Positions 16,548 to 41,862 are shown, counted from the stretch's first letter. The stretch: DNA of 46,014 bases from Rhizaria sp. SCN 62-66 (GCA_001724265.1 MEDY01000048.1:62001-108014); one strand, 5' to 3'. Notes: generated by a model from the letters alone, not told the origin. Numbers and translations: made by a program.

Positions 16548-17913
16548 GGCTTTCTGTGGGTGGATGTATACAAGTCAATAAGAGTAATGGGTGTGGGTTG
16601 AAGGGCGTTTGAGTGTGGGGAGGGGTGGTTTGGGAGCGACGTCGACCTTCGGGAGGAAGGGGATATACAGTCTGGTATTACCCTGAGAGACAGACGATAA
16701 CTAATGAAAATGTCCACATGTGCGCTGTCGTGCTATTGGTGCAGCTTCATAGACAAAATCAAGTGTTAAGGCCATGAATCCCTGGCCGAAAGCGGATGGA
16801 CGAGTTCAGTCGGTCCTTCGAGCGAAACCAAGTATGCATCGCAGGCATAGATTGCGCTACACACCGCCTTCAGAGACAAAGAAATTTTGCCACACAACAC
16901 AAAGCAACTTGTTCTAATAGAAATCAAAACAATTAATCCGTTTGACGGACATCACGGTCCGTGGCATTGCGTCAACGATACCTCGAGTTGACTCGAGAGT
17001 TGCTGTCCTCGTCGCTCTTTGCTGCTCAGCCAGGTCGTCATAGCCAGATTGGAGAGACCGTGGGCACTCGCTCGCGGCCTGACTTTTTGGACCGAGCTGA
17101 TCGACCGACTGACCGACCGACTGGGACCGAGCAGCGGCCGAAGGGCTCATTAGCCAAGAGGCGAAGGAAAAGAGGCGCGCGCTGCGTTGTGGAGAGGCGA
17201 TATTTAAAATCGAATATTCGGATGAAAAAGAGAAGGTTGAGAGGTATCTTGGTGAAAGCCGCTTGTTGCTGTTCTACGCTTGGATTCCTGTCTACGAACC
17301 TCTTTTTTGACAAATTCGGCAAGGATGAGCGTTGTTCGCACATTCCACTGTTTGCCTCGATCTCGCGCTCTAAACACTCTCACAACGGCTCTTTTGCCCT
17401 TTAACAGAATCTCACCGATATTTTTTCTCTTTTAATAACCGCGTTACTCTACTTTTGTGCTTTTGTCACGCGACACGAACCTTTCTTCGTCGTCCCGCCC
17501 GATTTCTGCCCAACGCCTCTCTCGCGCCCCCCACCGCCCTCGTGCGTTTCCGCGTCACTCTCTCTTTCCCCCAACCTCTCTATATCGCTCTTGCACTCGT
17601 TCTCTGTCTCGACCTTCCCCTTTTGTTTAGTTTCTCCTTCACAAACCCTTCCCTTAGACCGCGCTGACCGTACTCCGTTCTCGCGTTCTTGCCTCACCCA
17701 AAGCTCACTTTCTGTAGTAAGCTCCCCAAGCTCTCGTAAGCTCTCCCAGCCCTCCAGCCTCACTTTCGCATTTGCGCGCTCCTTTGGCCGCCCTTTGCAG
17801 CCGCTTGCCAAAGCAGCGCCGCCGTCTTTGTACCTCACCGCCGAACCGCAACAGTTGACAGCACAACACACAAGCTTGCAAGCATCTTAACACACACAGA
17901 GCTCGTGACCACG

Positions 17914-20900
17914 ATGGATCTCGGTCTCCCTCTTCAAGATCAGCACGCCTCCGCTGCCCCCGCAGCCCTCTCATCCCCCATCATTGCCCCCAACGCTTCC
18001 GGCAGCGGTGCTTTGAGCGCTGACTCTAGCAGTGGCAGCGGTTCGATGCCTCCGCTCTCCCCTCTGGCCGCCGCCGCCGCCGCTGCTGCTGCTGCCCCTA
18101 TGGTCGCCTCCCCGATCTCCGCCCCCGCCGCAGCGCCGGCGGCAGTTTCTGCTGCTGCAATGGACGGCCTCAACGTCCCCGCGCCCCTCATGGACGCTGA
18201 CGACGACAACGGCGGCTTATATTCCGCTCCCTCCGTCTCGGCCGCGACTGACAACTCATCGTTCATGTCAAGCGCTGATGTTGCTCCTGTTGCTGCAGCT
18301 GTGCCTGGGGCGGCTTCGCTTGCACTGGCGCCGCTGTCTCCGATCGCATCCGTCCCTGCTCCGCCCGTCGCCGCCGTCGCCGTCGCCCCTGCCGCCGCCC
18401 CCGCTGCGGCAAGTGAGCCTGCTCCTGCTCCCGGGGCGAGTGCCCCTGCGCCCGTCGCAGCCATCTCAGCCTCCGATGCCTCTGCTGCTCCTGCTCCTGC
18501 TTCGGTCTCAGCCCCGTCTGTCGTTATTGCCGCAGACTCTGACTCAGCCATCACCGCCGCCTCTTCAGCAACGACATCTGCCGACTTCACTGCCGCTGCC
18601 GCGGCTGCTGCGGAGGCTGCCGTGAACGCGACTCCCAGCGCTGCCCACCCCCACATGTCCGAGTCGGGACTCATGATCTCGGGCGTCTACCGCTACGCAC
18701 ACCCGCCTCACCTGCTCGTGCCCTCCACGTTCCCCTCCAAGGACCTGTTTTACACGCGCCGCAACGCCATCGAGCGCGCCGCCCGACTCCCCAAGGGCTA
18801 CCGTCTCTTGCCCACCGACCCTCATCACCCTCTGGGCGCAGCGGCCGCGAACCCGAAGGCCGTGGCGGCCCGCCCTCTGACCGCGTTCGGGGGCCCCGCC
18901 GCCGCTGCCGGCGCAGCCGGGTCTGCGGACGCCGCCGGCGCCGGCGCCCCGGGTGCTGCCGGGGCGGCCGGCGGGGTGTCGATGTCGACGCTCTCGGCGG
19001 CCATGGCCACGCCCACTGTGCAGGTACGCACTTAGACACTTAGATGTCTCCGCAATATGCCCGTGATCTCGAATTAATTGTATTTAATTAAATTTACTTC
19101 TTCACGATCTACTCACACCTTTTTCTTTAGAACAAACCACTCATATATCGCTCTAATATGTTGTATTTTGCGTACTATTGTGTACTTTTGACAGGCGCGC
19201 TCGTCCCGTGCCGGGCGCAACCCCGGCCGCACCTCGCTCTCGGGCTCTATCTCCATGTCTGCCTACTCCGAGGGCGCCGCGTCGCTCGACCCCGTTATGA
19301 CCAAGTGCGAGGTGATCCTGACGGAGCTCAACGACCAGCCGTACTGCCACGTGTTCTCAGCACCCGTGGATCCCCAACGCGATGGCGTGCCGACCTACTT
19401 CGACGTCATCAAAAAGCCCATGGATCTCGGCACCGTGCGTTCTCGTCTCATCACCGGAAAGTACGAAAACGTCGCCCGCTTTGCCGAAGACGTGCGCCAG
19501 GTCTTCGTCAACGCCACGACGTTTAACCCGCGGGAAAACTGGGTTCACGGCCTCGCAGTCAAACTCGCAGAGTTCTTCGAGAGTAAGCTCACTGCTGTCG
19601 AGGCATTCGCAGCGGAGCATGAGGCCGCCAAGGCCCGGCGCAAGGCCGCGCGCAAGTCAGGCGCTGGCGCTGGAGGCAGTTCCGGTACCGGTGGGCAGCG
19701 GAAGCGTGGGTACGGTGACAACGACGGCGACGACGACGACGATGACGACGACGACGGGGCGAGCGTCGCCTCGACCGGCACCGCCGGCCGCGCGAAGAAG
19801 CCGCGCCGTCCGTCGGCGGCGTCGGGTCGCAGCGGCCGCAGCAGCAACGCTGGTGGCGACGATGACGAGGACGGCGGCGCCAGCGACGCGACTGGCGCGG
19901 CTGGCGGTCCGATGATCAACGGCAGCATGATGCAGATGATGAACAACAACAACAACAACAGCAACACCGCCGGTGCCGGTGCCGGTGGTGCGGGCGATAT
20001 GACACAGATGCAGATGATGTGGCAAATGATGCAAATGCAGCAGATGCAGCAGCAGATGGCGATGTTGGCCGCGGGCGCTGGCGTCCCAGACGGCAAGGGC
20101 GGGAATAAGAAGCGCCAGAGCACCGCCGGCGGCGGTGGCAAGGGCGGCGCCAATGCTGCGAACAACATGATGATGAATCCGATGATGATGGGCATGGGTA
20201 TGATGAACCCCATGATGATGAACATGGGCAACATGGGTGGCAACATGATGAATCCCATGATGATGAACATGGGCATGGGGATGAACCCCATGATGATGGC
20301 CGGCGGTGGTCCCAATAACGCTGCTCAGGGCAACGGCGCGGTTTCCAGCAACAGCAACAGCAACAACAAGCGAGCCAGCGGTGTCGGCGTCGGCGGTGGC
20401 GGCGGCAGTAAGACCGGCGTCGGCGCTGCCCCCAGCTCTTCCCGCAAGCCCTCTGTCACCGCCTCCGCGCCCCACTCCGCCGGCGACGCCGACGCCGCGA
20501 TGCATCAGCAGCAACAGCACGCGCAGCAGCAGCAGCAGCATCAAGTCAACACTGCGCATACGCTCCGTGTCGACCAGCTCAAGAATGACATGCAGGGCCT
20601 GACTGGCGACGACCTCCCGGGCCTGGTCAGCACGCTTCAGCGCTACGACCCCAGTTGGCAGCCCACCGACGGCAACATCAGCCTCGACCTGAACGCGCTC
20701 GACGTTGTCGTCATCGACGCACTCGAATGCTACGTCGCCAAATGCCGACAGAAGCGGACGATCGCTCAGCAGCAGCAGTCGTCGGTGTTCCGCTCCCCGC
20801 ACTATGACGCGTCGGCGTCGCGTCTTGCGGGGCTGCATGGCACGCCTGTCGGCGTCGGGGTAGGTCTCGGTGCCATCGCCAGTCCGGGCAGCATGGGCGT

Positions 20901-22830: not shown

Positions 22831-24894
22831 TCACTCGCCATTATCAGCATTATCCTCCCCTTGCTGTGCCTGCAGCGCCAGCAGCGCTTGCTTCTTCCTC
22901 CGCGCACGCTCCCTGGCCCTCGCCTTGACCTCCTCGGACGCCTCCCTCAGGCGGTCATACTCCCTTTTCTTCTGCACGTACTCAGGATCTTTGTACCGCT
23001 CAGCATTTTCCTGCCGCTTCCGCTCCTTGACCGCGGGATCCAGCGTGCGCTGCATGTCGTAAGCGCGCTATTTCGCCCGCACCACGGGATCCAGCCGCCG
23101 CAGCCGCGCCTTTTCGTTCAGCAGCAGTCGGCGTTGTTCGCGCTCTGCAGGGCTCATCTTGTTCAGAGCCTTGGCCGAGTTGATCCGGTCGAGCTCCCGG
23201 CGGCGGTCCAGGCGGGCTATCTCATGGGGCGACATATCTTCACGGCGGCGGCAGCGGCGCCGGACGACGATAGGGTCCCCACTGGCGGCCGCGGCGGCCG
23301 CGGCGGCGGCCTCAGCGGCAGCAACAGCGGCGGCGGCCCTCTCGGCGACGGCAGCAGCAGCAGCAGCAGCAGGGGTGACGGCGGCAGAAGCAGGGGCGAC
23401 GGCAGTCACATCGCCGCTCACGGCGCCGGCGGCAGGGCTAGCAGCGGTGACGGCGCCGGCAGCCGAGACAACTGCGGTCGAGCAAACGCCGTTGTTCCTT
23501 CTGTCGCCCATATTGTTCTTGTTGTTACTGTTGTTGTTGCGGCGACGGGTGCGAGGCTCGGAGTCGGAGTCAGAATCGCTTTCATCAGAGGAGAAGGATG
23601 ACTCGTCGCAGTCTGAGCCGCGGAAATCAGAGTCGGAGTCGGAGGTAGAGAGAGACTTAGACTTTGGTTTTGACCGTGACTTTGCTTTAGACTTGCTCGT
23701 CTTGCTCTTGCTCTTGCTCTCGTCATTGCTCTTGTCACTGTCACTGCTGCTGCTGCCGCTGCTGCCGCTGCTACGCGAGGTAAAAGACTCAGAATCACGC
23801 ACGTACTTGACCGGAGACCGCGTTTCCCGAGCACGCGTCCTGGTACCCGTGGAGGTACCCGTGGGGGAACCAGTAAGGGAACATGTGAGGGAATCAGTGG
23901 GGGTATTCGCACTCGGACTGGCCCTCGCGTTAGGACTCGAGTTCACACTGGCGCTGGCGCTGGCGCTGGCGCTAGCGCTGATGCTGGTGCTGGTGCTGGC
24001 GGCGGCGGCGACTGTGTGTGTGCTGGTGTGAGCGTAGGACGGAGTCTGCCTTCGAGCTTCCTCGACTGCAGTCGGAGTTGCCGCTGCCGCTGCTGCCGCT
24101 GCTGCCGCTGCTGCTACTGCTGCTACTGCTGTACTGTGAGCCTTTGCTGCAGAGGCAGAGCCAGAGCCAAGCGCTGGCCGCAGCTATGACCGGAGAGGTG
24201 ACGCAGACGCAGACTCTACGCCTAACTAGGCGGGATAGCCAGTGGAAATGTTGTCCTCAGAGTCGCCGTGGCAGCCTGCGTAATTGTCACCGACGGTAAT
24301 GTCAGTGTCGAAGTTAGAGTCAGACTGAGTCATATCATCATCATCATCATCATCATCGTCATCATCATCAGAGTCGGTCTCAGAGTCAAAGTCGGAGCAC
24401 ATCATGCTGATGAAAATGTCGCTGTTGAGTATGGTACGATTCGCGAGAGAGCTCGCCTCCATAAGAGCGTTGCTCCTGAGGCTGGCGCTGCTAGAGAGGA
24501 GCAGTGCGCGCGCAAGCCGGTCGCTGAAGCTCTCTTTGGTGTGATGAGAATCACTCGAGCTAAGAGCAAGCGGGTACTGCTGTTGCTGTTGCTTTGAGCT
24601 GTTGCTCGGCGTCTTGCGAGGGCGCTTCGCATCAGCGCCGGGAGCAGCAGAGGCCGCGGCTGATGCGGTCACAGCTTTGACGCCAGCACGACGCCTCTTG
24701 ATCTAGATGTCGGATAAATGCTATGAAAACGTATTAAAATTGTGTGAAATAATACAAAGTGTGAGTATGCTAAGTAGAATTGTTGATCAGTGTTGTCATT
24801 AATGCAATGAAAGTGAACGAACGATAGCGGGCGAACAATAGTGTAGGCATAAAAGAGTTGGAGGTTGCCGAAAAATAAAACGTACCTGCGACAT
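22831..24894 (-). CDS. Unknown ~626 aa basic/acidic protein with C-terminal helical repeats; 3 in-frame TAG codons. Exons 24894-24886, 24702-22831
   Basis: ATG TCG CAG|GTACGT...TAG|ATC AAG AGG gives MSQIKRRR. The track ORFs 24226-24672, 23068-23946 and 22831-23055 share one frame and are separated only by TAG (24226-28, 24184-86, 23068-70). The gene ends in TGA. Confidence 0.75.
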
Positions 24895-26212
24895 ATTGAT
24901 AGCACAGAAACGTAGAACAAAAATACGAGTATATTTCTTTTGCGTGAGATTCGCGCGGCTTGCGCTCTTGTTGCGAAACCAGAGCGGTTAGGGAAGCAAC
25001 TGAGACCGAGACCAAGGTATGGGGGAGGGCACGAGCCGCCTCAAGGCGTGTAGCGCTGTACAAAAGTGTTTACAGAGGTCTAAACTAAGCCTGCTAATTT
25101 TAGCAAGTAAGAGATCGTGAACGATTGACGCGCACGCGTTCGGGGTGAGATTTGATATCAGGGGAGAGCACCGCATATCGTGAATGCACCGTAGAGTCAA
25201 GCGCTCAGAAGCGCACGCATTTCCATGACATGTTCACGCATATTTCCGTCAGATCAAATGTCATTATAAGTTACTTTTAGAATATAACATTTGAAACGAT
25301 ATATATCAACGTGGTCCTTTAGAAGGTCGATTTAGAGCGCACACATTCCATTTTTCTTCGCGATAGGTCGAAGACTGGTGGGCGCTCTCTACCACGAATC
25401 TTGGCAAGAAGTCGCAAAACAACACCCAAAGAGTTGTGATCTTTGATTAGTCAGCTGTATTTCAATTATTATATTTAAATACTATGTTTGTAATAAATAA
25501 ATTGTGTTTGTCCTTTAACTCGGACATTAGCCTGGTATATCTATCTCGATATGCCTGATGTTCGCACCACGGCAGTAGCTCACCATCAAGTATACAGCGC
25601 AAAACACAAGCGCCAGTTTGACAACATAAGCTTAAAAATGTGGGTGGGTGTGATACAACATGTAGAGCAAGTAGATACGCAAAGCCAGCGCTCCTGAGCC
25701 GCGTTTTCCGGCTGAGCTTCGTGGCAGTTGACTAACATATCATGATATCTCAGCTTTGGAACATAAAATTGTTAAGTGGGTATCATCTCTTGCGTTGATT
25801 TACTAAAATATGTTGTTATTAAGTGTCGTGATACTTTAATAATGAGAACGAGCGTTCGCCGATCCATATTTTCACAGTGTAACACTTTTTCAATCGAAGT
25901 CGCAACGGTCAGAGCCTTAACTCTGAAGGATTAGTTTAGGATTAGTTTAGGCGTAGTATTTGCATGCGCTGCTGGCTCCCTACACACTACAGGACGACGA
26001 CAGAGATATGACGTGATGATAATCGATGGGATATATGTATGAATGATACACAGTTTCATTAAACTGCTTGATAAACAAATAAATCAGCGAGTTGGTTAAT
26101 CACATCTGGCCTGACTCTCATAAACAACGAAAAGCTATCAAATACTGTTTTGCTGCTCAGCCAAGCTTAGCTAGCGTCCTCTGTCTTGAGTCAACACAGC
26201 GTCACTTCAGTT

Positions 26213-27422
26213 TCACTTCACTGGCGACGGAATGATCGCAATCGCGAGCAGCACTCCGGCCACACAGAGCCCAAATGACCGTGCGGCAGCCCACGTGATC
26301 GGTCCAGTCATGTGTTCATCGCCGTCGTGACTGTGTCCATGTCCTCCCAGGTGACTACGCCGGCGGTGACCGTGAGTCGCACGCGTACCCTAACCGGTAC
26401 TCATGACACCAGTGCCCGTGACACCAGTACTCGTGGTGTTGTTCGTGCGTTTCCTGTGACGCCGGGGCACCTACATCCCCCGCTCCCGCAGCTCCGCGTT
26501 GCGCTTACGGCGCTCATCGTGGTCCACGTCGCTGTCTTCACTCCCCTCACTGCTGCTTTCGCCGCCGTTGTCGTCGTTGCCGTTGCCGTCGTCAGCGCAG
26601 ACTGAGGCGTCGTGCGTCACAGAGGAGTCGTCACTCTTCACACAGTCACTCTTACTCTTCTTCTCCTGACCGCCACTCTGGTCAGCAGCAGAGCCAGCGC
26701 TGTCCGTTATGTCCGCGACAGAAACAGGGATATCTGCGATCAAAAACGCAAGCACAGCCGCGATCACAGTGAGCAGCAGCCTTCGGTACCACGGCGCCGG
26801 CGGCGGGGGCAGCCGGCCGTACGCCCGGTCGACATTTTCGCGAACCTGCGCGTCGCCCATCCACGGGCACGGCGCGCCGAGCGCGGCGGCGACTTGGACA
26901 GCGCTGGCGACAGCCGTCTCCAGGAGCGGGACGCCGCAGACGGAGTAGGAGCCGACGAACCACAGGGCATGTGTTCCTTGCAGCCGCCAGAGCTCTTGCG
27001 TCGCGCGCAGCGACGCCCACGTCACCACGGGCCGCTCGAACGCCGAGACTGCGAGCGTGTGTTGCGGCGCTGGCGCGACAAGGGGGTTCCAGGTCTGGAA
27101 GATGTCGACGTCGGTGCGGAGCCCGTGCTGCACGCGGTTCATCCAAATGCTCGCCATGCCTTCGCGCTCGAGCGCCGCGATCTGGGCCGCGCGCGCGGGG
27201 GTGAGAACGCCGTCGAGGTTGCGCGGAGGTGCGCTCGCAGAGTTGTGGTCGTTATTGTTGTTGTTAGAGCTGTTATTAGCGCTGTCGGAGTCAGCGATGG
27301 GGGTGGGCAGAGGCGCCTGGGGAGAGCCGGATCCGGCGGAAAAGGGCAGCTGCATCGTCACTTCAAGCTTCAACGCTCCCAGAGCACCCGAGCTCACACA
27401 ACCACCAGCGTCAGAGTTGGCG

Positions 27423-27459
<37 letters not shown>

Positions 27460-29371
27460 AGTTGTGGGCGTTAGTTGCGCTGTTCTGGTCGCTAGTGAAA
27501 GACTGCATCTCCTGGAGCGAGTCTGGCAGGATGAAGTTCACCGAGCGCCAGTCGGCCCTCTTGGCGGGCATCAGGGCCGGGTCCGTGTGAAGCACCAAGC
27601 GCGACGACTCGTAGGGAATGCCACGCAGGGCGCGGTCGAGCGCGGCGCGGTCTGCGTCGTCGCACTTGCCTGTCAACACGTTCGCGGTGCAGCCAGCAGC
27701 GTCACTCACGCTCGCACTGGAACGAGAGCTAGAGGATGATAGTGTTGATGACGCGGAGTCAGGGGTCTTGTTGTCGCCGTTCTTACTGGCGTTAAAGTGG
27801 CCGCCGGCAAGGATGGCAGCGGACTGGTTGGCCTGTGTCGCAAAGACAACGTGGTCAAACGTATCCACGGCGCCCGTCGAGTCCGTCAACGTCACACGCC
27901 ACTTCTTCTCGTGCGTACCCTCACGAGTACCCACGGGTTCCGTGTCGACCCGCGTGATCCTGCGTCCCAGCCGCACGTCACTGCAGCGGCGCACCAGTTT
28001 ATGCACGATGTCCTGGGCCCCGCCGCGGGCACGCCTGACCCCACGCCAGGAACGCGTGACCAAGTACTGCACGACGACCCAAGCCGGGTAGTCGGCGGCG
28101 GCGCGGGAGGAGCACGTGCAGATCGAGGCCATAGTGGGAAGCATGAAGCGGTAGATGAAAGAGGTTGAGTACCGTTGCTGCAGTAAATATTCGAGCAGAG
28201 TAGGACCCTCAACGCCTTCGATCTCAGCAGGAGACTTGCCATTCGCACCCGCACTCGCACTCGCGGCCTTAGAGCTTGTGCTGTTGTTGCTGTTTTTGTC
28301 GTTGTTGGCGACAAGGGCCGACGCGTGGCGGAGACGGTCGGCGGAGGACAGCGTGCCATCGCAGAGATGCTTGTGGGATTCGTTGAGGAAACGCATCAAA
28401 TCACGCAGAATCACCCAGAACTCACCACTCACAGGGCCGTCAGTCACCTGCTGCTGTCGCGCACTTGCTGAGCTAGAGCTGGAGTTGGAGCTGGAGCTGG
28501 CGTTAGGGCTAGAGCGAGAGTTGTGAGAGTGTGCTTTGGGGTTGTATTTAGTCGAAAGTCCGAGGAACGCACGAGTACGCGTGACTGCTGCGGCGGCCGC
28601 CTGTGTGGCAAGCGCGACAGGCGACATGTAGGGCAGCGAAAACGAGCCCAGGAGCAGGTTGCGGTAGGCAAACAGTGTGGCGCCAGAGAGACAGGAGAAG
28701 GACGACTCGTAGTTCTCGGCCTAAAATGATACAACCAACAAATTCAAAGTGTACATGTGAGTTTTTTACAGTAAAGCCAAGGAATCACTGTGTGACAAAT
28801 ATTTAATTGTGCGGATAAATTAGAATTAACTCGGGAGTCACAAATCACATGAAGATATCTTGAGTGCAATTAGACGTACCTGGTACTTGACGCCGACACG
28901 GTCGTACAGCGCAGTCAAATGCGGGTAGTACGACTCCGTGAAAACACGCAGCGGCACGTCAACACGCACACGCGCGTCTAGTCCACTGCAAGAGCTACTG
29001 TTGGCTGCGTTGGGGATGTTTGCTGCGGCCGCGGCGGCGGCAGAGGGCGGGCCGTTAAGGACAGGCTCGTTGTCAGTGTTAGCATCGCCAGTGAGCGAAA
29101 AGGCACCAGAAGCAAAGTTATTGCCCAGCGTGATGCCGTTCGAGTCCATGCCGAGGTGCGAGGCGGCCTCGTAGACGACGACGTCGTGCTACAAAGGAGA
29201 CTCGGCGAGAAGGTAGGCCGCCGTGAGACCTGCGATGCCGGAGCCGACGACGGCGATACGCTGCCGCGAGTGCACGCGCTGCGGCAGGAACGCCGCCGGC
29301 TGCTGCTGCTGCGGCGGCGGCAGCGGCGGCTGCACGGAGGACGCAGCGGGCGCAGATGCAGGGGTGGACAT
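26213..29371 (-). CDS. COG2907-like predicted NAD/FAD-binding oxidoreductase (amine-oxidase fold) with C-terminal hydrophobic anchors, ~999 aa; 3 in-frame TAG codons. Exons 29371-28880, 28720-26213
   Basis: Rossmann motif RIAVVGSGIAGLTAAYLL..(TAG)HDVVVYEA..HLG. Further motifs VDVPLRVFTESYYPHLTALY, FDHVVFATQANQ, LVLHTDPALMP..W, LQG..LWFVGSY..GVPLLETAVASA. TAGs at 29189-91, 26471-73 and 26390-92; terminal TGA at 26213-15. Confidence 0.88.
27422..27457. repeat. (GTT)12 microsatellite encoding poly-Asn on the minus strand
   Basis: Directly visible; corresponds to the N12 tract in the oxidoreductase. Confidence 0.9.
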
Positions 29372-30070
29372 GCGGCTGCGGGGGCTGCTGCGGTGGGGTG
29401 AGGGCGGAGTGCGGCGGAGATGGGGAAGTGAGAAGTGAGAGGCGGCCGTGAGAGGTGTTCGGCAAGGGTTTAGGAGGCATAAAAAAAACAGATATGTGAT
29501 AAATATGTCATGTTTAATAAATTATAAAATGTTGAAAATAGCCCTGAAGTACATATATCGCGTACGACGGACAGTACATGGCTAGATTGACGACGCTAAG
29601 TTGAGGGCGAAAAGCTCGCTGCGTGGTTGTTGACCATCTCTCGATCTGCTCGTGGACCGAAAAATCGAGAGCCCAGTCTGCGGACGGACGGACACATATT
29701 GCATTAATGTCCGCCACCCGCAATCGTCTCGCAGCGCGAATATACGTCGTTAATAACTCTTTTAGCGCTTTGCTATGAAACTTCACGACGTAAAACTTAC
29801 ACTCCAGATTACGCATATTTCCATTCCCTCCGTGTCCTTCGCAGCCCTTCTGGTAAGTTCGCCGACTTCGAACTCAGCAAAGAGTCCAGAACTCCACTTC
29901 CCTTCTCACTCGGTTCCGTCCCCCGCGGTCCTGCAACCAGCTCACCTCTTTAGAACCCTTTCCCGCGTTTCCCCCCGCGCCAACCCCAGTCGCTGATCTG
30001 CAGCGCAGCGTAAGCACAGTCAGCTCACCGCCTCAGCAAGCAAGTCCACAACACACGCAGCCTCAGCACG

Positions 30071-31921
30071 ATGTCGTTCCTCTCCCGGGCCCTGCAAGAC
30101 AGGCTCGACGAATTCAACGGCCGGCCCACCCTGCGTGAGCAGATGCGCGATGCACCCTCAAGGGCCGATGCGTTTTTGGTGCAGGTTAGGAACATGAAGC
30201 GCTCGTGCGTCAAGCGCGGTCTCGGCGACTTTGCGTCCGCCTTTTCCATGGGTCTCGTCGGTGGTTTTGCGCTCCATTTCCTCAAGACAGTCTACTTCTC
30301 GCCCCCCGGCATGGCGCGCTGGATTGAGGGCCTCCGCATGGGCTTTAAGAACGCCCCCAAGACGGGTTTTGCCTTCGGTCTCTGGGGTGGCATCTTTTCC
30401 ATCTCCGAGTGTTACCTCAAGAGGTGGCGTGGCGGCAAAAAGGACGCCCTGACGTCCATCGTTGCCGGTGCTTTCACCGGTGGCGTGCTGGCGTTCCGCG
30501 AGAACTCCAACGGCATCATGCGCGGCGCTCTCATTGGTGGCATGCTGCTCGGTGTCATCGAGGGCATCATCGGCGTCGTGACCTTCTTCGCCAAGGACGA
30601 TAAGGACGCCGAGGTTGTCCCTGTCAAGCTCATCGACGATGACAAAAAGGATGACATCGCCGAAGCCATCTACTTCTACCGTATGTACCGCTCCATGATC
30701 GAAAAGGGCAAAGACCACATTCAAGGCGCCGACAAGCAACGCGCCTTCATGGAAGTCTCCGCTGAGAAGAACGCTGAACGCGCCACAGCTGGCGCGGCTC
30801 GTATCCGCGACTCGATCAACACACTGCGCCAGAACGGCACCCCGTCGACGCTGCCGCCGCCACGCATCGCGCAGATCCTCAACGAGCGCCCTGGCTACGG
30901 CACCACGGCCAGCAGCGCGGCGTTTGATGTCGCCAATGACAACGCGCATCGCCGCGCGCTGGACCAGGCCCGCGAGGAGCACAAGGACTCGCTCAAGCTC
31001 ATGGGCTTCACCTTCGGCGCGCGCCCCGGCACGGCGCACGGCGACGCGTCGAAGAAGGAACGTCCCGACCCGTAGCAGGCGGCCGCGGCGCGCGAGGCCG
31101 CGGGCATCAAGGGCAAGATTATGAGCGCGTTCGGCACTGGCTACCGCGAGCAGTTCTACGACCCTGAGGCCGCGACCGACGAGCTGATGCGCGACGGCGT
31201 GACGCTCATGAATGACTACGACGAAGCCTACCGCGCGCACATCGCCGCGGGCGGTTCCGCCGATCTCGACCGCATGGAGGAGGAGATCTTCGAGCGTGAG
31301 ATGGCGCGCAGCGAAGGCGGCGAGGCCGCTGTGGCGCTGATCGAAGACGCGCTCAAGCGCCGCGAGCAGATGCGGCTGGGCGCGCGGCCGATGGCGCACG
31401 AGCCGTTGCTCGACGGCCCGCTGCCGAGTACCGGCGGGCACGAGTCGGCGTTCCTGGCCGCGCAGGGCAAGGGTTCCACGGCGCCGGGTGGGATCACGGG
31501 CTTCACGCGGGACCCCGTGACCGGGGAGATTACGAGTCTGACCGTAGACCGGCGCGCTGACGGCGGCGAAGACGCGCTGACTGAGGAGGCGATGACGGCG
31601 GCGGCCGGGCGCGCCCTGGAGAAGATTGCTGTGCTGGACTGGGGACGACGCAGGCAGCAACTCGTGCGGGACACGCAGCGTGAGCAGCGCCGCATCGAGC
31701 GCGAGTACCTCGGTAAGGACGACGACGACGGCGATGACGATGACGGCGATGATGAAGGTGGTGTTGACGGCTATGAGGCGAGTCGGAGCGAGGCTGGCGG
31801 CAGTCGGTTCACAGACTTCACCAAGAGCGGCGGCTACACTGCGGCCGAGAGGACGGCGATGCGCGCCAAGCGCAGGGAAGTGCTCGAGAACAAGAGCAAG
31901 AACAGCGGTAGCTGGTGGTGA
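30071..31921 (+). CDS. TIM17: Mitochondrial inner-membrane translocase Tim17-family protein with a long C-terminal extension, 616 aa; 1 in-frame TAG (31073-75); intronless
   Basis: The Tim17 domain is SC..R..GDFASAFSMGLVGG...APKTGFAFGLWGGIFSISEC...RGGKKDALTSIVAGAFTGGVLAFR...IGGMLLGVIEG. ORFs 30071-31075 and 31121-31921 are in the same frame, linked by TAG plus 15 sense codons (QAAAAREAAGIKGKI). Stop TGA. Confidence 0.85.
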
Positions 31922-32785
31922 ATGATCTATCTTTATGAGTGCTTGTTCACAATATCTAAGTTAGAAATCAGAAGGCCGTAGGTAAAATCGGGACAGCTGT
32001 TGTAGCTTTGTTCTGTGTTTCTTTTCTGTGTTTGTGGTTTGTTTACGCTGTTCATGTTTACACTCCGAGCGAAGAGGAAATGAGAGAATAAACAAGTTTA
32101 TATTTATTGTAAGTGATCACCTGATTACATACTTCGGTAAGCATCAGCATAACTGGTCAAACACACGCACGCACACAATTCTTGATCTGTCAGTATTTCT
32201 TCGTATTATTTATCGCCGTCTTGCTATATAATATTTTTTTCTCAAATTTCCACTCATCCCCTCCAATTCCTCAGCGCACATTGTACCATACTATGAGCTA
32301 CACTTCTAAACTATCATACGCGATCGATCTCTCTGTCTGCAAGTCGTCAATCATCGTCAATCAATATCCGACGTGTCAAGCACGACTTCCTAGATTTGTG
32401 TACTATCTACACGGCCAATATAGTATTGGCTGACTGAACGAATGGCCCATGGCTTAAGAGTTACCGCTACTTTCTGTTGCAGATGGCAATACTGTCAGTT
32501 CTTACGCGTTGCGTCATTTGACATCACGCCACGAACGAGCGACCTGGTTTGCCTTCACTTGTTTTTGCTTTGTTTTTGAATGGTTTTCGCTAGTCTTGCT
32601 TCCCAATGCAGCTAAATACAGAATGTTTAAATTCTACTGCGCGCGATGAAACTATCTACAAGTGAGATTGATCCATATAAATAATACAAGCACGACGACC
32701 AGATACACCATGTCGAATGAAATGGAACGTGTTCTATTGTAGTCAAGGGTTGCTAGATAAAATCCGTTTCTTAGTACATGTACAG

Positions 32786-35700
32786 TTATTCGCAAAATAA
32801 ATCGATGTTAAACGTGTCCGCCAACACTTCGAGCGCATGCCCCCACCCTTGCTCCCCCAACCGATACGGCGCCGGATCCGTTGCTGCCCCGGTGCTCGCA
32901 ACGCTCTCAGCATCGCGCTCAGCCTCCGCTGCGGTCGCGGGTGCCGCCGCCACCCCCGCCCTGGCAAGCGCAGCGGCACTGTCCGCGCTCACTGGACACG
33001 TGAACGGCGCGAGCGCTACCGCACTCTCGACCGGCATAGAGGCGTTCGCGCTGGCGCTGACGGTGGGCTCTAATCGGGCAGCAAGGCGAGATACGTAGGG
33101 TTGCAGCGGAGAAGCGGCGCCAGCGCGCAGTGCAGGCTCGAGCCAGTCTTCGAGAGCAGCGGCAGCGCGGACAGCAGGGAGACTGTGCGCACTCGTGGGG
33201 ACACGTGTGCGTGTGTGCGCGAGTGCGCGGGCGAGAAAGCGCGTGTTCTCTGGGAATAGCGGTGTCAGCATCACTCGGCGACCGTTACTTTTGTGCGCTG
33301 CCAGCATCTCAACTGACACTGATAACGGCACCGGGGCTGTTTTGAGGTTGTCATAGGTGATATTGCGCGGGGTCACCAAATAATTCATGTGCCTGGGTAA
33401 GTACCGCGGCTGCGCGTCAAACCACGAACCCATCGTATGACTGTTGCTGTCACCATTGCAGCTCTTCCTGAGATCGCTACTTGTACTGTCGTCATCACCA
33501 CCAAGCACGGCGCTGTGCCGTGCAGCTGCAAGCGCGATAGCGCAGCCCAGCCAGTCAAGCGGCACTGCACTGAGCTTAAACAGCATCGGCACACTGCTCT
33601 CAATCACATAATTCTGCGATTCGCGCGAGTTGCCGCTGTTGCTGCTCGGCGCCCAGTGCAAGTCCCTGCGTGGCAGCGGCGGCGCGAGACCGGTGCGTAG
33701 CGTCTCTGCGAGCGCTCGGTGCGGCAAATCAAGCGCAATCGCGCGCGGCCGCAGCGCCCGCGGGCCACGGTCGGCCAGTGCAGTCAGCACAGGCAGGCCT
33801 GTGTCAGGGTCGCGGCGGAAAGTTAAGCCGCCCCGAGCTACAGAAATGTGACCCGGGCTCAGCACCAGCAGGGGCAGAGCGTAGGCACGCGCGCAGGCAA
33901 CAAGCGCGCGCTCGCCAAGTAGCTTTGTTGCTGCATATCCACTCAGCGCAGACGCAGCAGTCGTTGAGACATGCGCAAAATTTGGCACATCATCAGACTG
34001 AAGTGCGCTGTGCCGATCGCAGTGCGTTGGTAACGCGTACGGCGCTAATGACGGGGACGAGGGATCAACGGTGTCAGTCGTCGATATGTGATACGTACAC
34101 GCCGCACAAGCGATTTCACTCGATACCTCGCTCCCACTCACACTGGCAGTCGCAGTTCCGGTCGCAGCCGCTGTTGTCGGTTGACTGCGCAGTGCGCGTG
34201 CTGAGGCGGCGAGCGCGGCAACCGTGACGCACGCCGCGGCGTTCGCAGCCCTCAGCTCAGGGTCCCAGGCCGGCGCAGCGTGGTCAACCGACGCCGCGCA
34301 ATGAAACACGGCCGTTGTGACCGCGGCCAGAGCGCGCCACTGACTGCGCGGGAGACCGAACCAGGGACGGGAGACGTCGGCGGCCACGGCGGAGACGTGG
34401 GCGGTAAAAGCGCGGCGGCAGACCCACCAACCACACGCGCCTGCGTCCGACTCAACACTGTTTTTCCACTCCGCTCTTGCGTTGGCGTCAGTGTGAGTTA
34501 AGATGCAATCGGTCGGTGCCATAAAGCGCGCTTTGACGAGCGCGCTTTCAAGCCTCGACAAAGCGGCGTGGCTGTAAACAAGCTTGTCGTTGTCACCATT
34601 GTCGTTGTCGCCGCTGCCATTGCCGCTACACCGCACAAGGGCTGTGACAGCCAGCGGCGCGTTCGTAACAGCAGCGAGTCGCAACAGAGCGCCCAGCAGT
34701 GCACCACCGACGGAGCCAGTGACCCCGGTCAGAACAGCGCGCGGTGAGGGACAGCACAACCACGGTGCGAGAGGGCCGGAGGATACTGTGCTCAAGACAA
34801 TGTCAACAGGCTTGTTGATGTTCAGAGCTTGCAGTTCTGCGAAAGAAAGGACAGATGCGAGGAGTGCCGTGAGCGGCGGCGGCGTCCACTGTTGGCAGCA
34901 CGGGAAAGGAAACGGCATCACTAACGCGTCGTTGTCAACGACTGACGCGCCGTTGTCAACGACATCACTCGCGGTAGTGGTAGTCGCATTGCCTGTGCCA
35001 GTGACGGGCGAGTTCATAGAAATGATGGCATCGTGAGTGTTATCTGGTACGGCTGCGTCACTCGCAAAAGAAGAGAAAGCTGCAGTGCCAGCATTGGTCT
35101 CGCCACAGCTCTCTCGACTTTGTGACCCTCGCTGAACACGGTCATCACCCCAGTATCCCAGCCTCCAGAGACACTGCAGCGACGCCTCAGGTGCGGACAT
35201 CACCCGCGCCACCGCGCCCGAGACTGCTGCAACTTCACGAGCGGTGCGCGTGAGTCCTGCGCTCAGGCGCTCAGCACTCGTGATTACAGCGCGTAGGCGC
35301 TGCAGCGCAAACGAGTCCACGCCCAAAGCGCGTAGTGGCGTGCGAGGTTCACGCAACAGCAGCTCAGCGGGACAGCCCGTCGCCTCCTCAGCAGTAGCCG
35401 CAAATAGGGCAAACGGCTCATCGTCGCGATGTAGCTTCACAGTCGTTGCGGCTCCGCCGTGAGCAAGGAGAGGCCAATGCGCAGCAGCAAGTGCAGCTAC
35501 GGTGGCGGGCGCGCGCGCGAGTTTCCCGCTGCCGGTCAGCGGCGGCAGCGCCAGCGTGGCCGTGACCGACAAAGGCAGCATGCGCAGCGCAGCGGGCAGC
35601 GCGTGCGACACACGGGGGGCAGCCACGGGATGCGACAGCGCGCACGCTAGCCGTGCCGGGGGCAGCATGAGACACGAATCAGCTGCGCGCGTTGCAGTCA

Positions 35701-38700
35701 CGCCGCTGTTAATGACATTGCTTGCGCTGTCGCTGCCGCCGGTATTTGGGGCGGAAGCGGCAGTGAGTGCGGTTGCGGCGTCCGTGGCGGCAGCGCGCTG
35801 AAGCAGCAGCGACTGCAGCGGCCATGTTGGTTGCGACGACTCGCTATCAAGCTCTGCCAGCGCAGCCCCAACCGCATCGAGAGTGACTGTCGCATTTTCG
35901 TCGCTCTCAGTGATACTTGAACCAGCGCAAAAAGCGTTGAGATTGCGGCTTGTGTGCTGAAGCCAGATCTGCAAGTCATTGAGCGCACGCTCAGCAGCGC
36001 GGCGCCACTCAGGAGATAGCCACAGCGCCAGCACCAGCCTCTGCCCGTCGCTCGCCTCGCCACGCATGCCGCTGTGGTCGCTGCTTCGACTACCGCCGTC
36101 ACTGCGGGGCGCGAGCAGCAGGGCCGCAGCCGGTGCGGGAACAACCGCCGCGGCGACAGCGGCTTCGGCGGCGTCAACAGCGACAAACTCGCCCGCGCGC
36201 GTGCGCACTGCGGCGGATATGCGGCCTAAGATGATGAGAGGGCGACGGCCGTCGGGGAAAGCAGCGCCAACACGCGCGATGTCACCGGTCGCATGCCAAC
36301 CAGCCCACTTGTCACAAGCAACAGCAGAGTCGTCAACGCAAGAGTCTGTAGTGTCTGCAGCGTTTCTACTGAAATCAGTGTTGCTTTCACTGGTCTTCGT
36401 CGAGTCAAGACAAAGATATCCAGCGCTGCGGCCACGCGAGCGCAGCATCAATTCGCCCACATCGCCCTCGCGCTCCAAAACCGCACTCACTAAAGCGGCA
36501 ACCGCATTAGAGTCACTCTGCGCAGACAGAGGCCGCAGCCGCGCCTCGGTTGCGCGCGCGCCGCCGTCAGGGTCATTCCCGCCCAGCAGCAGCCCGCGGT
36601 CGCCGCTGCTGACGGTGCCGGTCTCGGTTGTGCCGAAGCTCTCCCGCAGCGGCACCGCGGCGGCGGCCCACGCGCGGCGCGCATCGCCGCTGCCGAGAAC
36701 CAGGGACAGCGCGGCGCGCAGGGTGGCGGGCACGGGCGCGGAGCCCGTGGCGGCCTCAGACAGACGCATGCCAAGGGCGCGGCGGGCAAGAAGGCGGGCG
36801 CGCGCACAAGCCAGAGTCAGCGCGGCGGCCGCGTTCGCACCGCGGTACACGGCACGATCACTGACGGCGCGATGAGCTCGGTTTGCCGCGTGATTGGCTC
36901 CGTTGGTGGTGTGGCTGGTGGTGTCGAGCTGCTGCTGCTGCAAAGCGAAGGTGCGCGCGCGGTGAAGCAAGTCTTCCCAGATACGCGGCACTGCAAAAAG
37001 AGACGACGGAGCAAGAGCGGCACAGTGCGCCCACAAACTCAACCCGACGAGACCACCGGTCGACGCAGTCGCACTGTCACTCAGCACACCGCCGTGGACA
37101 CCCGGACTGCCGTGGTCAACATGAGCCCTCGTGCTGCTGCAACTGGCAGCCGCATCGGGGCAGTATAGCGCAACGCGGCCGCCGCGCGCAAGTGCGCGAA
37201 ACAATGCTGACTGTCCATTGTAGTGCGACAGAGGATCGTGCAGTAGACACACCGGAGGCGGGGCGCTCGCGTCGTCCGGCTCCAGACCGCTGTCGCCGTT
37301 CAGCACAGCCACATTCCCCACAGCGGAGTCATCACCGCCCACGGCGACGCTGTTATTCCACGTATTCTTGCATAAATGCGGCGCAACGGACCAAAGGAAG
37401 CCCGCGCGCGTGACCATGACGCCGCGCGGCGCGCTGCCGGAGGTGCCGGATGTCGGCAGCACGGCGTGCAACGACTCGGCCGCAGTGTTGATGCGCGACG
37501 CGGGGTCGCCAGATGACTCTGTGGCAGCGGCGATGCTGGCCACTGAAGCAGTCGTTAGACCTGAGGCTGCAACATTTGATGTAGCTGCTGCCAACTTGGA
37601 TGAAAGAAGAGAGCGCATTGAGAGCACAGTGACGCCACGTGAACTCGCTAGCACATGCACTGCGTTGACAGTGCAAGCGTTATTGTTATGCGTGGCGCAT
37701 GCATCGTGGTCTTCGGAGTCCACATCAAGCAGCAATACCACTCGGGGCAACACGAAGACAGCATTATCGTCGCTGCAACGATTCACACTGCGTTTGCGAA
37801 AGCTGCTATCGTAGCAGTGACAGCGCAGCAGCCGCAGCGCAGCGCCGGCAGGCAGCGCAACTGCAGACACAGCGCCAGTCAGCGTCAAAGAGCGTAGATA
37901 CGCAAGCTCGGGCGAGTGCGGGCATTTGCAACCACGAGCCACGGTCGGCGACTGCGACTGCGCTTGACACCGTGACTGGGACTGAGACTGCGATTGTGAT
38001 TGAACTGCCTGCGGGCTGCAGCAAGGAGGATGTGACTGTGAGAGCGTTGCATCCCACGGCACCCAGTGCGGCACAAAGCACGTCTCAGGAAGTCTGGCCG
38101 CGCCAGGAAGTTTGGCCGCGCCATAAAGTTTGGCCGCATTTGGCGACAGTGTTGGCGGCGAGAGCGACATAGCGACCGTGAGCAGCGCAAGCGCAGGTGA
38201 CGCAGGCGCACACACTGCAACACAGTGCACTTGATCGCGTGCAGTCGGCTGCGCTGCAGCTGTAGAGGGCGTATCATTGCGCGCTTCAGAGCCCGTCATA
38301 CATTGCGTATCGTGCGCCTTCGCGTTAGTGTCCGTGGTGGCAGCTGCGATCACAGCTGTGGTCACAGCTGAGGTCGCGAGTGACTGCGAGAGGGCACTGG
38401 CGAACGACTGGGACAGCGTGGTCGCGAGTGCAAGAACCTCAGCGTAAGACAGCCAGGCAAAGAGCCTGTTCGCAGAGGGCTGCATGGGCAACAGCGACTG
38501 CGGCCGCGAATGTAACTGTGACGACGACACAGTCACATCACGGCCAGCGCCAACGCCGGCGGCTGCGGACGCATCAAGAATGTCCATCGAAGCACTGCTT
38601 GTATCGGGTTTGACATAGGATACATCGCACATCTCACCGGACACTGTGTCGGCCTCTAACTCCTCTAGTGTGCAATTGAGATCGAAAAACGCCCGCATCG

Positions 38701-39823
38701 CAGCCGGCAGCCACCGCGGCGGCGCCTCACGTCCACTCGCACTCGCGCTCGCACACGTTGCGGCACAGATGCTTGCCATGGCGCGATCGCCGGCAAGAAC
38801 ACGCGCGCTACCGGTGGCGCAGGCAGCGTCCCTAACGCCGACGCCGGCCTCGGCGGCACGGACAGCAGAGCTGCGCGCGCAGAGAGCAGAGCCGCGCGCG
38901 CAGCCAGCACTGGCACGGGCCGGGGACGGCACAAGCGCCGCAGCGAGCGCGGGCGCCGTGGCCGCCCTCGGCAGCGGGCGCCAGTGCGCGCCGCAGTCCC
39001 ACGCGCCGCCGGAGCTGTCTTGGCCGACTCCAGCATCGCGCTCCGGCGTACGGTCACCCTGCTACTGCTACTGCTGTTGCTGCTGTTGTTGTTGTCGTTG
39101 TTGTTGCTGTGGTTGTAAATCGCGGTCACTTGCGCTTGGTGTATTGGTGCGGGCCAGAGCACGCAGAGTGGCCATTGCCGCGCGGTCCCCGGCGCCTAGG
39201 CACGGCCTGCCCGGGTGCAGCGCGGCAGCAGCCGCAAACGCAGCGCCAGCCGAGAACGCCGCGAGCTACGAAGCGGGCTAAGATGAAGCAGCCGCCGGCT
39301 CCAGTGGCTCTGGCGAGCAGAGGTGGCCGCGATGCGGCCGCGCGGCGGCGCAGGGCCGGCACAGCCACACGCGCGCGGGCGGAGCGAGCGTCGCAACACT
39401 GGCGCCGAACGCTGGGTCCCACGGGTCGCAGCGCGCGCGCGGCACGAGCAGCGGCGCACGCGCGCCGGAGCAGTCCCAGCAAACGAGCGCGTGGTGGTGC
39501 AGCGGCGCGGCGCAGTCGTGGCAGGGCGCGGTGGCGGCGCGCGCGGCGTGCGCGGCGGCCAAGTCCGTGGCGAGCGCGCCCGCGGCCTCGCGCTGCTTCA
39601 TGGCAGTGTACTCAGCGGCGGTCAGACCCATCATGCGGAGCACTTTCGCGGTCGGCAGCGGGGCGGCGGCGTCCGCAGCTGTTGTCGAGGACGCTGTTGT
39701 CGCAAGCGCTGTTGTCGCCATTAATGTAGCTGTAGAATCCGCGGGTATGGCAGCAGGCGTCGATTCACCATCGTCAAGGTCGAGGCGATGGGCTCCAGCG
39801 CCGGGGCGCTGCCGGGAGAACAT
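32786..39823 (-). CDS. Carboxylic-acid-reductase-like NRPS-type enzyme (adenylation, carrier, thioester reductase) with an N-terminal Cys/His finger, ~2345 aa; 4 in-frame TAG codons; apparently intronless
   Basis: A-domain motifs PTSGTSGSAPRGV, PLSH, AVPRIWE, TGSAP, FGTTETG, GELMLRS, WHATGDI, GR...AGEFV and LTGSGKLAR. Carrier motif LGVDS. Reductase motifs LTGVTGSVG, DVSRPWFGL, HCAASV and GYAATK. ORF 39278-39823 joins ORF 32786-38932 in frame through TAGs at 39278, 39266, 39068 and 39062. Stop TAA. Confidence 0.85.
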
Positions 39824-40281
39824 GCTGAAGATGCCTACCTAGGCGCTGTGTAGATGAGGACGTGATTCTAGAGGGGTATACGAAATTATAAGGTTTATTA
39901 TTAAACATCCGGTGAGAAAAGTTGTAAATAACATAGTATGCATCGTTATACTCTTGCGGACGGATTACACGGACTTCTGCCCATCTGTCTATTCAAGCTA
40001 CATTCTTTCTCTCCCCTCGAGTCAGTGATTTTTTTAGGTACAGGACGAACGGGTGGACTACATGACACGTGAAAATAGCTTCAATTGTGATGTATTCTCA
40101 GCGCCTACATGATAAATATACTGGCGTAGTGCTTTCCATCGTTCATTGCGACAACGCGTGCGCATGCGATTTCTTTTATACGATCTGATCAAAAACTAAA
40201 AACTACAACAAACAACAATAATCTCTCTCCCTCAACTCTCAGCTATCTCTGCATGCTTCACTTCACGAAAGTGCGCGATAC

Positions 40282-41238
40282 TTAGCAGCTGACGATGCCG
40301 GTGTTCTGGTCCTGCATGTCTCCCTCAAGCGACACGACGTCCTTAAAGTGCGTGATGCGCGCAACACGGAAGCGCACAGCCGTGCCGACCTGCAGCGTCT
40401 CGTTGGTTGCCGCATTGACCCACCCGGCGCCGTCGTCCGAGAACTCAAACTCGGCGGGCAGCCCGGCCGCGGCCTTGATCGCCGCGTTGAAAGTGCCGTT
40501 GACGAGGAGACCGACGTGGTCGGCCTCGACCTTGTTGATCGTGCCGGTCACGTACGCGCCCACGGCAGGGCGGAACACCAGCAGACGGGCCTAAACAGGA
40601 AACGAGGGACGAAAGAACAAACAAAAGAAAAAGAGGTATAGATGTGAGTAGTTGGAGTTGAAAATTTCACATAGGATCGCAATATAAGTGTTAATATAAA
40701 ACGTCGTGCAATCTTAACACACACGTATCATCAAAGTCTATTGCCATGTTTATGTGTTGTCGGGTGCAAAGTGTACCTGGATGTTGAAGTGGACGTGAGG
40801 GCGGTCGAAGAAGACCTCGGAGTGAGTGTCGAGGATGTGAAGCTTATCAAACGCCATCACAACGCCGCCGACCTGCGGATTGTACCTGAACAAGGAACAC
40901 GCGAGTGCAACAGAGCGAGATTAGAGTGATCAGGGGTGAGCAATGCGAAACGAGGAGTTAGTATGGCAAGGCGTACATGGAGACAATACTTATGTGGGTC
41001 GCGAAGAAAACGCACGGCCAGAGTTTCCACGCGTAGAGGTACATCATATCAAAGGCTCGAAGAAAGCTGCACATATTGCAATGATCTAGCGCTTGTTTTG
41101 TGAGGGAGTGTTGGAGGAGACGTACTTCATGAGCATCGACGTGAGAAGAGCCTGGACACCCTCTGTGACGTTGCCGAGACGCGAGGGCAGCAGGTGCACC
41201 TTGGTCTCAATAATAACGTTGTGGAAACAGTCAGCCAT
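40282..41238 (-). CDS. RPA43: RNA polymerase I subunit RPA43 (RPB7/RPC25 family), ~176 aa. Exons 41238-41126, 40885-40777, 40590-40282
   Basis: The spliced product VHLLPSRLGNVTEGVQALLTSMLMK|YNPQVGGVVMAF..DRPHVHFNIQ|ARLLVFRPAVG..GTINKVEADHVGLLVNGTFNAAI matches the RPA43 SHS2 and OB domains. Stop TAA; a further small 3' exon cannot be excluded. Confidence 0.85.
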
Positions 41239-41862
41239 TGCGGAAACGGAGTGAAGCGGGGCGCGAAAGCGACGGGAGCTGCACAAGCGCGGAGGCAAAA
41301 AGGCGAGGTGGGTGAGGGACGGGAGCGAGGAGCGGCAGCGCGGCAAGAAAAGCGGCGCAGACTGGTTTTAAAGCAGCGGGGTGGCTACGACAGACAACTC
41401 AGTAGACGGTCGACTGTGCAGCAGAAAGAAATCAGTTAAGCAGGGGCGACTCGGGTGCGATGCCGAACGTCGGAGCGATGAGACCTACGGCGGCAAAGGC
41501 GATACAGCGGAAGTGAATATAACGGCATGAAAACGACAGAACGCAATGTGGCCACAACATATATTAAATCATTAACGCTACTATGTGGCCACTAAAATTG
41601 AAACCTAAACACGATCATTTACCCCTATTACCAGCCAGTATGCGTTCTTGGACCGACCGAGCGCTGCCGAGCCTGCTGCTTTGACGGTCGGCCGAGCTGG
41701 CTAGCCGATAAGGCTGACATGGCTTAAGGAGGCGTCCAACGTCTATTGTTGACCGGACTGGCTCTCGCTCAAACGTCCGCTAATTCGAAAGAGGTGCAGA
41801 TATAGTCAGTGTCCTGCATCTTTCTCGCGTATATTTAACGGATATCTCCGTATCCGCATTGC

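Follow-up and report, generated by a model that had tools for sequence, protein, structure and literature searches.

The DNA considered here, a 46,014-nucleotide stretch of contig MEDY01000048.1 (the whole of which is called the window), alternates between GC-rich stretches (~0.6-0.68 GC) and AT-richer spacers and carries eukaryote-type genes on both strands. Domain searches identify genes for Kelch, EDR2_C, type-B carboxylesterase, BET bromodomain and Tim17 proteins; a flavin adenine dinucleotide (FAD) amine-oxidase-like gene, a very large adenylation/reductase-type gene and a gene for a PH-domain protein are also present. Four of these genes, lying between 22831 and 39823 (Table 1), contain TAG in frame, 11 times in all, and these codons, which appear to be read as an amino acid, are the subject of this report. 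The window has the features of a eukaryotic nuclear genome, with spliceosomal GT-AG introns that are AT-rich and locally ~160 bases long; the carboxylesterase gene, for example, is interrupted by AT-rich introns with AG ends. An earlier reading of the sequence (the original prediction) called the organism intron-rich: introns certainly exist, but the term overstates the case, the largest gene being a single exon of ~7 kb.

The same DNA turns up again in runs from bioreactors, wastewater and activated sludge, belonging to several studies (2015-2025; the labels read bioreactor or wastewater metagenome, one run is without a label, and runs with small word shares, X7-X10, were not counted for habitat). 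The stretch 22831-32000 is present at 0.79-0.99 of sampled words in runs X1-X4, which come from three studies, and part of it is found in an activated-sludge polyA RNA library. Because of this recurrence across studies, the window is identified as a metagenomic contig of an uncultured eukaryote, namely nuclear DNA of a GC-rich organism. Searches for other DNA of this organism or its relatives found no locus in metagenome contigs (queries P0004 and P0007), in genome contigs (P0006 and P0007) or in viral contigs (P0006).

Table 1. The four TAG-bearing genes and their in-frame TAG codons, in window coordinates.
Feature	Position	Strand	Description
P0003 gene	22831..24462	-	low-complexity, basic, coiled-coil-like protein; first ATG 24460-24462; TGA stop 22831-22833; TAGs at 24226, 24184 and 23068
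P0003, one in-frame TAG	23068..23070	-	residue 573 of the frame; followed by 78 coding-like codons and then TGA
P0003, two in-frame TAGs	24184..24228 (24226-24228, 24184-24186)	-	between two coding-like stretches
Amine-oxidase-like gene, exon 2	26213..28720	-	COG2907-type 'NAD/FAD-binding protein'; Pfam Amino_oxidase; TGA stop 26213-26215; hydrophobic C-terminal tail
Amine-oxidase-like gene, in-frame TAG	26390..26392	-	exon 2; variable stretch; the next 58 codons are the conserved C-terminal tail
Amine-oxidase-like gene, in-frame TAG	26471..26473	-	exon 2; opposite His of P0007 in a conserved acidic/basic stretch (alignment A1, columns about 1040-1060)
Amine-oxidase-like gene, intron	28721..28879	-	159 bases, AT-rich, GT-AG
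Amine-oxidase-like gene, exon 1	28880..29371	-	start ATG 29369-29371; GxGxxG Rossmann FAD-binding motif; in-frame TAG 29189-29191
Tim17-domain gene	30071..31921	+	Pfam Tim17, E 1.1e-19; long C-terminal extension; in-frame TAG 31073-31075; TGA stop 31919-31921
Large adenylation/carrier/thioester-reductase-type gene	32786..39823	-	single exon; first ATG after leader 39821-39823; TAA stop 32786-32788
Large gene, two TAGs	39062..39070 (39068, 39062)	-	one CAG between them; end of a CAA/CAG (poly-Gln) run
Large gene, two TAGs	39266..39280 (39278, 39266)	-	three codons apart, in an Ala/Ser-rich linker

Translation and codon context place all 11 TAG codons, distributed over four genes on both strands, at the positions and in the frames that the original prediction gave them. 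Across the ten gene models (~10,349 codons, the starts of two models being too generous by 1 and 9 codons), TAG occurs 11 times in frame while TAA and TGA are entirely absent; the four TAG-bearing models are also free of frameshifts, as had been claimed for all ten. Of the three trinucleotides, TGA is the most frequent in the window as a whole (1398 counting both strands, versus 629 TAG and 684 TAA), and in the non-coding frames of the same genes TAA and TGA together occur at 0.0201 per codon. TAG itself is rare in frame, at 1.06 per 1000 codons or 3.6% of CAG+CAA+TAG, compared to 6.5 per 1000 off frame. None of the nine genes with 3' ends inside the window, a small sample of terminators, ends in TAG; the split foreseen for them, five TAA and four TGA, was not reproduced (here five TGA and four TAA), a discrepancy that comes down to a small difference in gene models. 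Further TAGs in the same frames, at 39839, 24703 and 24721 in 5' leaders and inside an intron just upstream of its acceptor, at residue 15 of its frame, were rightly left out of the 11.

Judged by its homologues, the amine-oxidase-like gene is the decisive case for TAG as a sense codon. An exhaustive HMMER search with exon 2 returned 1363 homologues at E <= 0.001; the best, P0007 (913 aa, 61% identity), comes from a 5391-base JGI contig and bears the source label 'jgi: predicted NAD/FAD-binding protein', as does P0009. The junction of exons 1 and 2 is gap-free in P0007, P0008, P0009, P0011 and P0012 (alignment A1), confirming the intron between them. The TAG at 29189 (residue 111) falls inside a Pfam NAD_binding_8 match (residues 91-133 of P0005, E 7.1e-14), in the loop that links the GxGxxG helix to the following Rossmann strand, and Protein Data Bank (PDB) alignments to solved Rossmann proteins extend across it. 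Five homologues, all continuous across this column, have G, N, K, K and D there, P0007 being the one with Gly. At the other end of the protein, the 58 codons after the TAG at 26390 match residues 868-913 of the 913 in P0007 with a score of 77, beyond all 3000 shuffles (z 9.7, against 1.1 and -1.8 in the two other frames), and the two proteins end at the same point. Because the Rossmann match spans 29189 and the tail is conserved to the P0007 C-terminus, translation must pass at least the TAGs at 29189, 26471 and 26390. Could the first of these be spliced out? Splicing would have to start at the single GT upstream of it, and the resulting 41-base excision would break the frame and remove the FAD-binding helix; this candidate was rejected.

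For the Tim17-domain and P0003 genes, the evidence lies in codon usage, scored as a log-ratio trained on the six TAG-free genes only (4836 codons). The 281 codons that follow the Tim17 TAG score 0.248, against 0.328 before it, with other frames at or below 0.016; a separate scoring gave 0.233, the other five frames staying at or below 0.051. Control windows of the same length reach at most 0.047 among 195 off-frame and -0.153 among 42 intergenic samples. The GC content of third codon positions (GC3) holds at 0.70-0.92 through and beyond the TAG, and, from the 0.0201 per codon given above, the chance that 281 codons lack TAA and TGA is ~0.003; the same stretch is the one that scores as coding. 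No relative of 349-1112 residues came up in a protein search with the Tim17 product. In ESM Atlas, the post-TAG part (31121-31918) appears as a separate protein, from its 16th residue; a query with the extension itself gave no usable hit, and its model is poor (predicted local distance difference test score, pLDDT, 0.46).

P0003 matched no Pfam family. Its frame scores 0.506 over residues 109-186, 0.262 over residues 202-425 and 0.118 over the codons between the TAG at 23068 and the stop, each value being the best of six frames. Residues 202-425 (224 codons) are coding-like and contain no ATG; therefore, the start must lie upstream of the TAGs at 24226 and 24184. An internal repeat that would cross the TAG at 23068 is weakly supported (P = 0.04 and 0.03).

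Of the 11 TAGs, the four in the large gene are the least well supported. This gene encodes a protein of 2,3xx residues with a Cys-rich N-terminal part and a Pfam NAD_binding_4 match (E 6.9e-16). Upstream of the TAGs, GC3 is 0.88-0.97 at residues 91-210; the codon-usage score of the gene's own core is only 0.066. Its standard-code version, P0006 (1952 aa), begins at a Met after all four TAGs (32786-39061), and a search with the large protein found only this version of itself. In one public assembly, P0006 is encoded on a 170-kb contig.

The TAGs are unlikely to be assembly errors. An independent check used contigs from three other studies (four runs, sampled 2016-2025), with 32 pieces listed and 845 more beyond the listing: the codon is bridged unchanged at 23068 (X4 record 9, X6 record 25), at 26471 (X2 record 2, X4 record 10, X6 record 26), at 26390 (X2 record 2, X4 record 10) and at 31073, where X2 record 4 and the polyA-RNA-library contig X5 record 20 (30982-31388) are both unspliced as well. 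The TAG at 29189 is covered unchanged in X4 record 11, a borderline case that extends 30 letters past the codon, one below the bridging rule; the other six of the 11 sites, including the 24184-24228 and 39266-39280 pairs, are unbridged among the 32 pieces listed. Of the 12 differing places listed, none is at a TAG. Some contig alignments contain joints that might be taken for splicing; they skip 101-16,264 bases, have sides of 20-28 letters at low-complexity repeats and were set aside as repeat artefacts. No weight was given to stretches that the RNA library leaves uncovered. As a separate observation, a 1699-base contig of X4 (record 12) ends at 31072, one base ahead of the Tim17 TAG, through which X2 and X5 continue; such a break might mean that the codon is polymorphic in that sample, e.g., CAG/TAG.

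But which amino acid does TAG specify? Given that TAG is sense, glutamine is fairly likely. The original prediction's 'probably Gln' is favoured by codon context and by a test of neighbouring codons, while a conserved-Gln column is found at none of the 11 sites. Two TAGs lie inside a CAA/CAG run and one adjoins a CAG, and TAG is one transition away from CAG. A Gln-codon neighbour is found for a fraction of 0.345 of Gln codons, 0.118 of Met codons and no more than 0.075 of the codons of any other residue. TAG has such a neighbour in 3/11 cases, which favours Gln ~8-fold over Leu and ~33-fold over Glu. UAG might nevertheless mean another residue, for example Glu, Lys or Asn, or the Leu that it specifies in exLh (a rhizarian) and in the phyllopharyngean ciliates from TARA; a meaning other than Gln is a possibility of some weight, although not the favoured one. 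A conservative form of the neighbour test (2/10) hardly separates the candidates (Gln 0.182, Met 0.229, His 0.136, Leu 0.115). Furthermore, no TAG stands opposite Gln in a homologue, which counts against glutamine: the two reliably alignable sites are opposite His and opposite Gly, the latter in the Rossmann-loop column where other homologues have N, K, K and D. That column suits several polar residues as well as it suits Gln, and Glu, Lys and Asn match the homologue columns about as closely as Gln does. By BLOSUM62 values, hydrophobic and aromatic residues are a poor match, and Leu, Tyr and Trp are disfavoured because the columns are polar.

Taken as a whole, the evidence favours an organism in which an amino acid is efficiently inserted at UAG, leaving UAA and UGA as the sole terminators, a reading that we put at a probability of roughly 0.8. 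Homology in the amine-oxidase-like gene and codon statistics in the Tim17 and P0003 genes bear out the prediction that TAG is sense and that its frames continue as coding sequence. Decoding would depend on a dedicated tRNA whose CUA anticodon would pair with UAG but not with UAA, and recognition of UAG by eRF1 would be lost or weakened. If the amino acid is Gln, as we infer, a silent C-to-T change in CAG could produce TAG. ARAGORN and Rfam found no tRNA genes in the window, which also contains neither an eRF1 gene nor a marker gene for lineage. A standard-code annotation breaks these genes, as had been foreseen: P0006 starts after the TAGs of the large gene, and the Tim17 gene is represented in ESM Atlas by its post-TAG part.

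Several observations weigh against this reading. All of the evidence comes from one 46-kb window, in which six genes (5836 codons) are TAG-free and the four TAG-bearing genes are neighbours, flanked on both sides by TAG-free models (heterogeneity p = 0.023). The four TAGs of the large gene are all within the first 301 residues of its frame; residues 48-228 score only 0.014, though this is the best of six frames, and the stretch between the two TAG pairs scores -0.102. On codon usage, the final 58 codons of the amine-oxidase-like gene score -0.106, and homology alone carries them. Finally, the base after the TAG (+4) is C in 8/11 cases, as a leaky-termination context would also look; after the true TAA and TGA stops it is a purine in 7/9. 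Rarity, uneven distribution and +4 context together would suit a dual meaning, in which a suppressor or near-cognate tRNA, e.g., tRNA-Gln(CUG), reads UAG where the 3' context is weak for termination, and UAG terminates elsewhere; instead of a clean reassignment, the organism would then have an ambiguous code, or programmed readthrough on a wide scale. We consider this improbable. The excess of C is striking when set against the share of C at codon position 1 (0.232; p = 0.0007), but it is not significant against CAG codons (p = 0.097), because these have C next nearly half the time (0.487). None of the nine gene ends in the window is a TAG, and genes with three or four TAGs would be expected to give almost no full-length protein unless each were read efficiently.

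That the code is simply standard is very improbable, and this rival is already largely refuted. It would make the TAGs the true stops of the P0003, amine-oxidase-like and Tim17 genes and place the rest in 5' leaders, the open frames beyond them being due to chance in GC-rich DNA. Most TAGs are indeed near the ends of standard-code open reading frames (ORFs), ~3/10 genes with a TAG end would be an ordinary share, and long shadow ORFs do occur, e.g., 600 codons antisense to the Tim17 gene. However, the TAG at 29189 separates the Rossmann motif from the rest of its domain, the sequence after two other TAGs is conserved to the homologue's C-terminus, the post-TAG Tim17 stretch beats every control window, P0003 would be deprived of 224 coding-like codons lacking a start codon of their own, and true intergenic DNA here is AT-rich. 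Could the codons instead be nonsense mutations, in pseudogenes or a locally C-to-T-mutated region, errors of sequencing or assembly, or sites removed by splicing or editing? The adjacency of the four TAG-bearing genes between TAG-free ones would fit, as would the single transition from CAG, but we give these explanations equally little credence. The four genes span ~4513 codons without a frameshift, TAA or TGA; coding statistics and protein conservation continue past the TAGs; contigs of other studies (2016-2025) have identical letters; and no in-frame GT-AG excision, nor any GT-AG intron of the local AT-rich kind, removes a TAG. The polyA-library contig that retains the TAG at 31073 argues against editing or splicing, tempered by the point that an RNA library may contain DNA.

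Efficient decoding of UAG as an amino acid thus remains the preferred reading, and the rarity of TAG, ~1 per 1000 codons, suggests that the reassignment is young or weakly used. A bolder version, which we regard as rather unlikely, is that the window belongs to an undescribed non-ciliate lineage at an early stage of UAG capture, with UAG as a rare, partly disfavoured Gln codon and the organism a natural stop-to-sense intermediate; UAG would then be tolerated chiefly where the protein is under weak constraint and where a C at +4 makes for poor termination. Among formal codes, NCBI translation table 15, in which TAG is Gln and both TAA and TGA are stops, fits the window best; it is a label that is silent on lineage and mechanism. 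Many genes on a GC-rich contig of more than 46 kb with AT-rich introns are unlike a ciliate. We likely see a new lineage with a known rare type of code: the carrier, with its GC-rich, multi-gene contigs and AT-rich introns, appears to be new.

How does this code compare to those already described? UAA and UAG are almost always reassigned together, with split codes in a handful of lineages (PMC5304391, PMC11687900, PMC10553269); in one oligohymenophorean ciliate, UAA and UAG even have different amino acids (PMC10553269). Reassignment of UAG alone is reported for Iotanema spirale (Gln) and exLh (Leu; PMC5304391), for three TARA phyllopharyngean metagenome-assembled genomes (MAGs; Leu) and for Hartmannula sinica and Trochilia petrani (Gln; PMC11687900); because of these cases, the present type of code counts as known. 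Iotanema (Fornicata) resembles the window organism in that UAG alone is reassigned, likely to Gln, and UAA and UGA remain stops; the authors argue that CUA is the sole anticodon that reads UAG but not UAA (PMC5304391). It is described as an anaerobic metamonad, known from a transcriptome in which Gln was assigned from many conserved columns and a likelihood test (PMC5304391), whereas the window organism is GC-rich, has a Tim17-domain gene, uses TAG rarely and has its Gln assigned from context only.

Hartmannula and Trochilia likewise read UAG as Gln and keep UAA and UGA as stops (PMC11687900). According to the same source, UAG makes up 18.5% of Gln codons in Hartmannula and 31.8% in Trochilia, versus 3.6% here, and is carried by 78-84% of their genes, versus 4/10 gene models here; both strongly prefer UAA as the stop, in contrast to the TGA/TAA mixture of the window. 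The closest parallels in kind are exLh (Sainouroidea) and the TARA MAGs, described as UAG-only changes in poorly known or uncultured protists recognized from sequence data alone (PMC5304391, PMC11687900). Their Leu is a poor fit to the homologue columns here, and exLh, with 384 in-frame UAGs reported in 71 genes (PMC5304391), has a far higher density than the window. Because UAG use in exLh is also reported to differ sharply between gene groups (PMC5304391), the uneven use of TAG here is not without precedent. Condylostoma, karyorelicts and Blastocrithidia share with the window a stop codon that is sense inside genes, where context may matter, but in what is described of them the reassigned codons also terminate; here no gene ends at TAG, and neither TAA nor TGA ever occurs in frame. 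Full-text literature searches, judged by their listings, brought up no wastewater eukaryote and no GC-rich non-ciliate in which UAG is sense, which is no proof of absence in print.

Each code that splits UAA from UAG demonstrates that a release factor and tRNAs can evolve to distinguish the two codons. If the present reading is true, a GC-rich non-ciliate with TAG at ~1 per 1000 codons would add an independent case, one that might be early-stage and useful for testing how stop codons are captured. There is also a practical side: standard-code gene calling already splits or truncates the genes of this organism in public protein sets, and the organism recurs in wastewater and bioreactor samples of several studies.

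The GC-rich coding sequence of the window is full of homopolymer runs (poly-Asn, poly-Gln, poly-Ala, poly-Asp and poly-Ser), and word-based protein searches were swamped because of them. Outside the four TAG-bearing genes, the Ala-rich ORF 17740-19077 (+) has a TAG 13 codons ahead of its TGA; because it follows a GTACGT-type donor, this TAG is probably inside an intron (region 19024-19192). If that intron is real, the ORF and the BET bromodomain exon that starts near 19192 are probably one gene. On the other side of the large gene, 40282-41370 (-) holds a small split gene that ends in TAA; read by eye, its translated pieces resemble an RNA polymerase subunit of the Rpa43/Rpb7 type.

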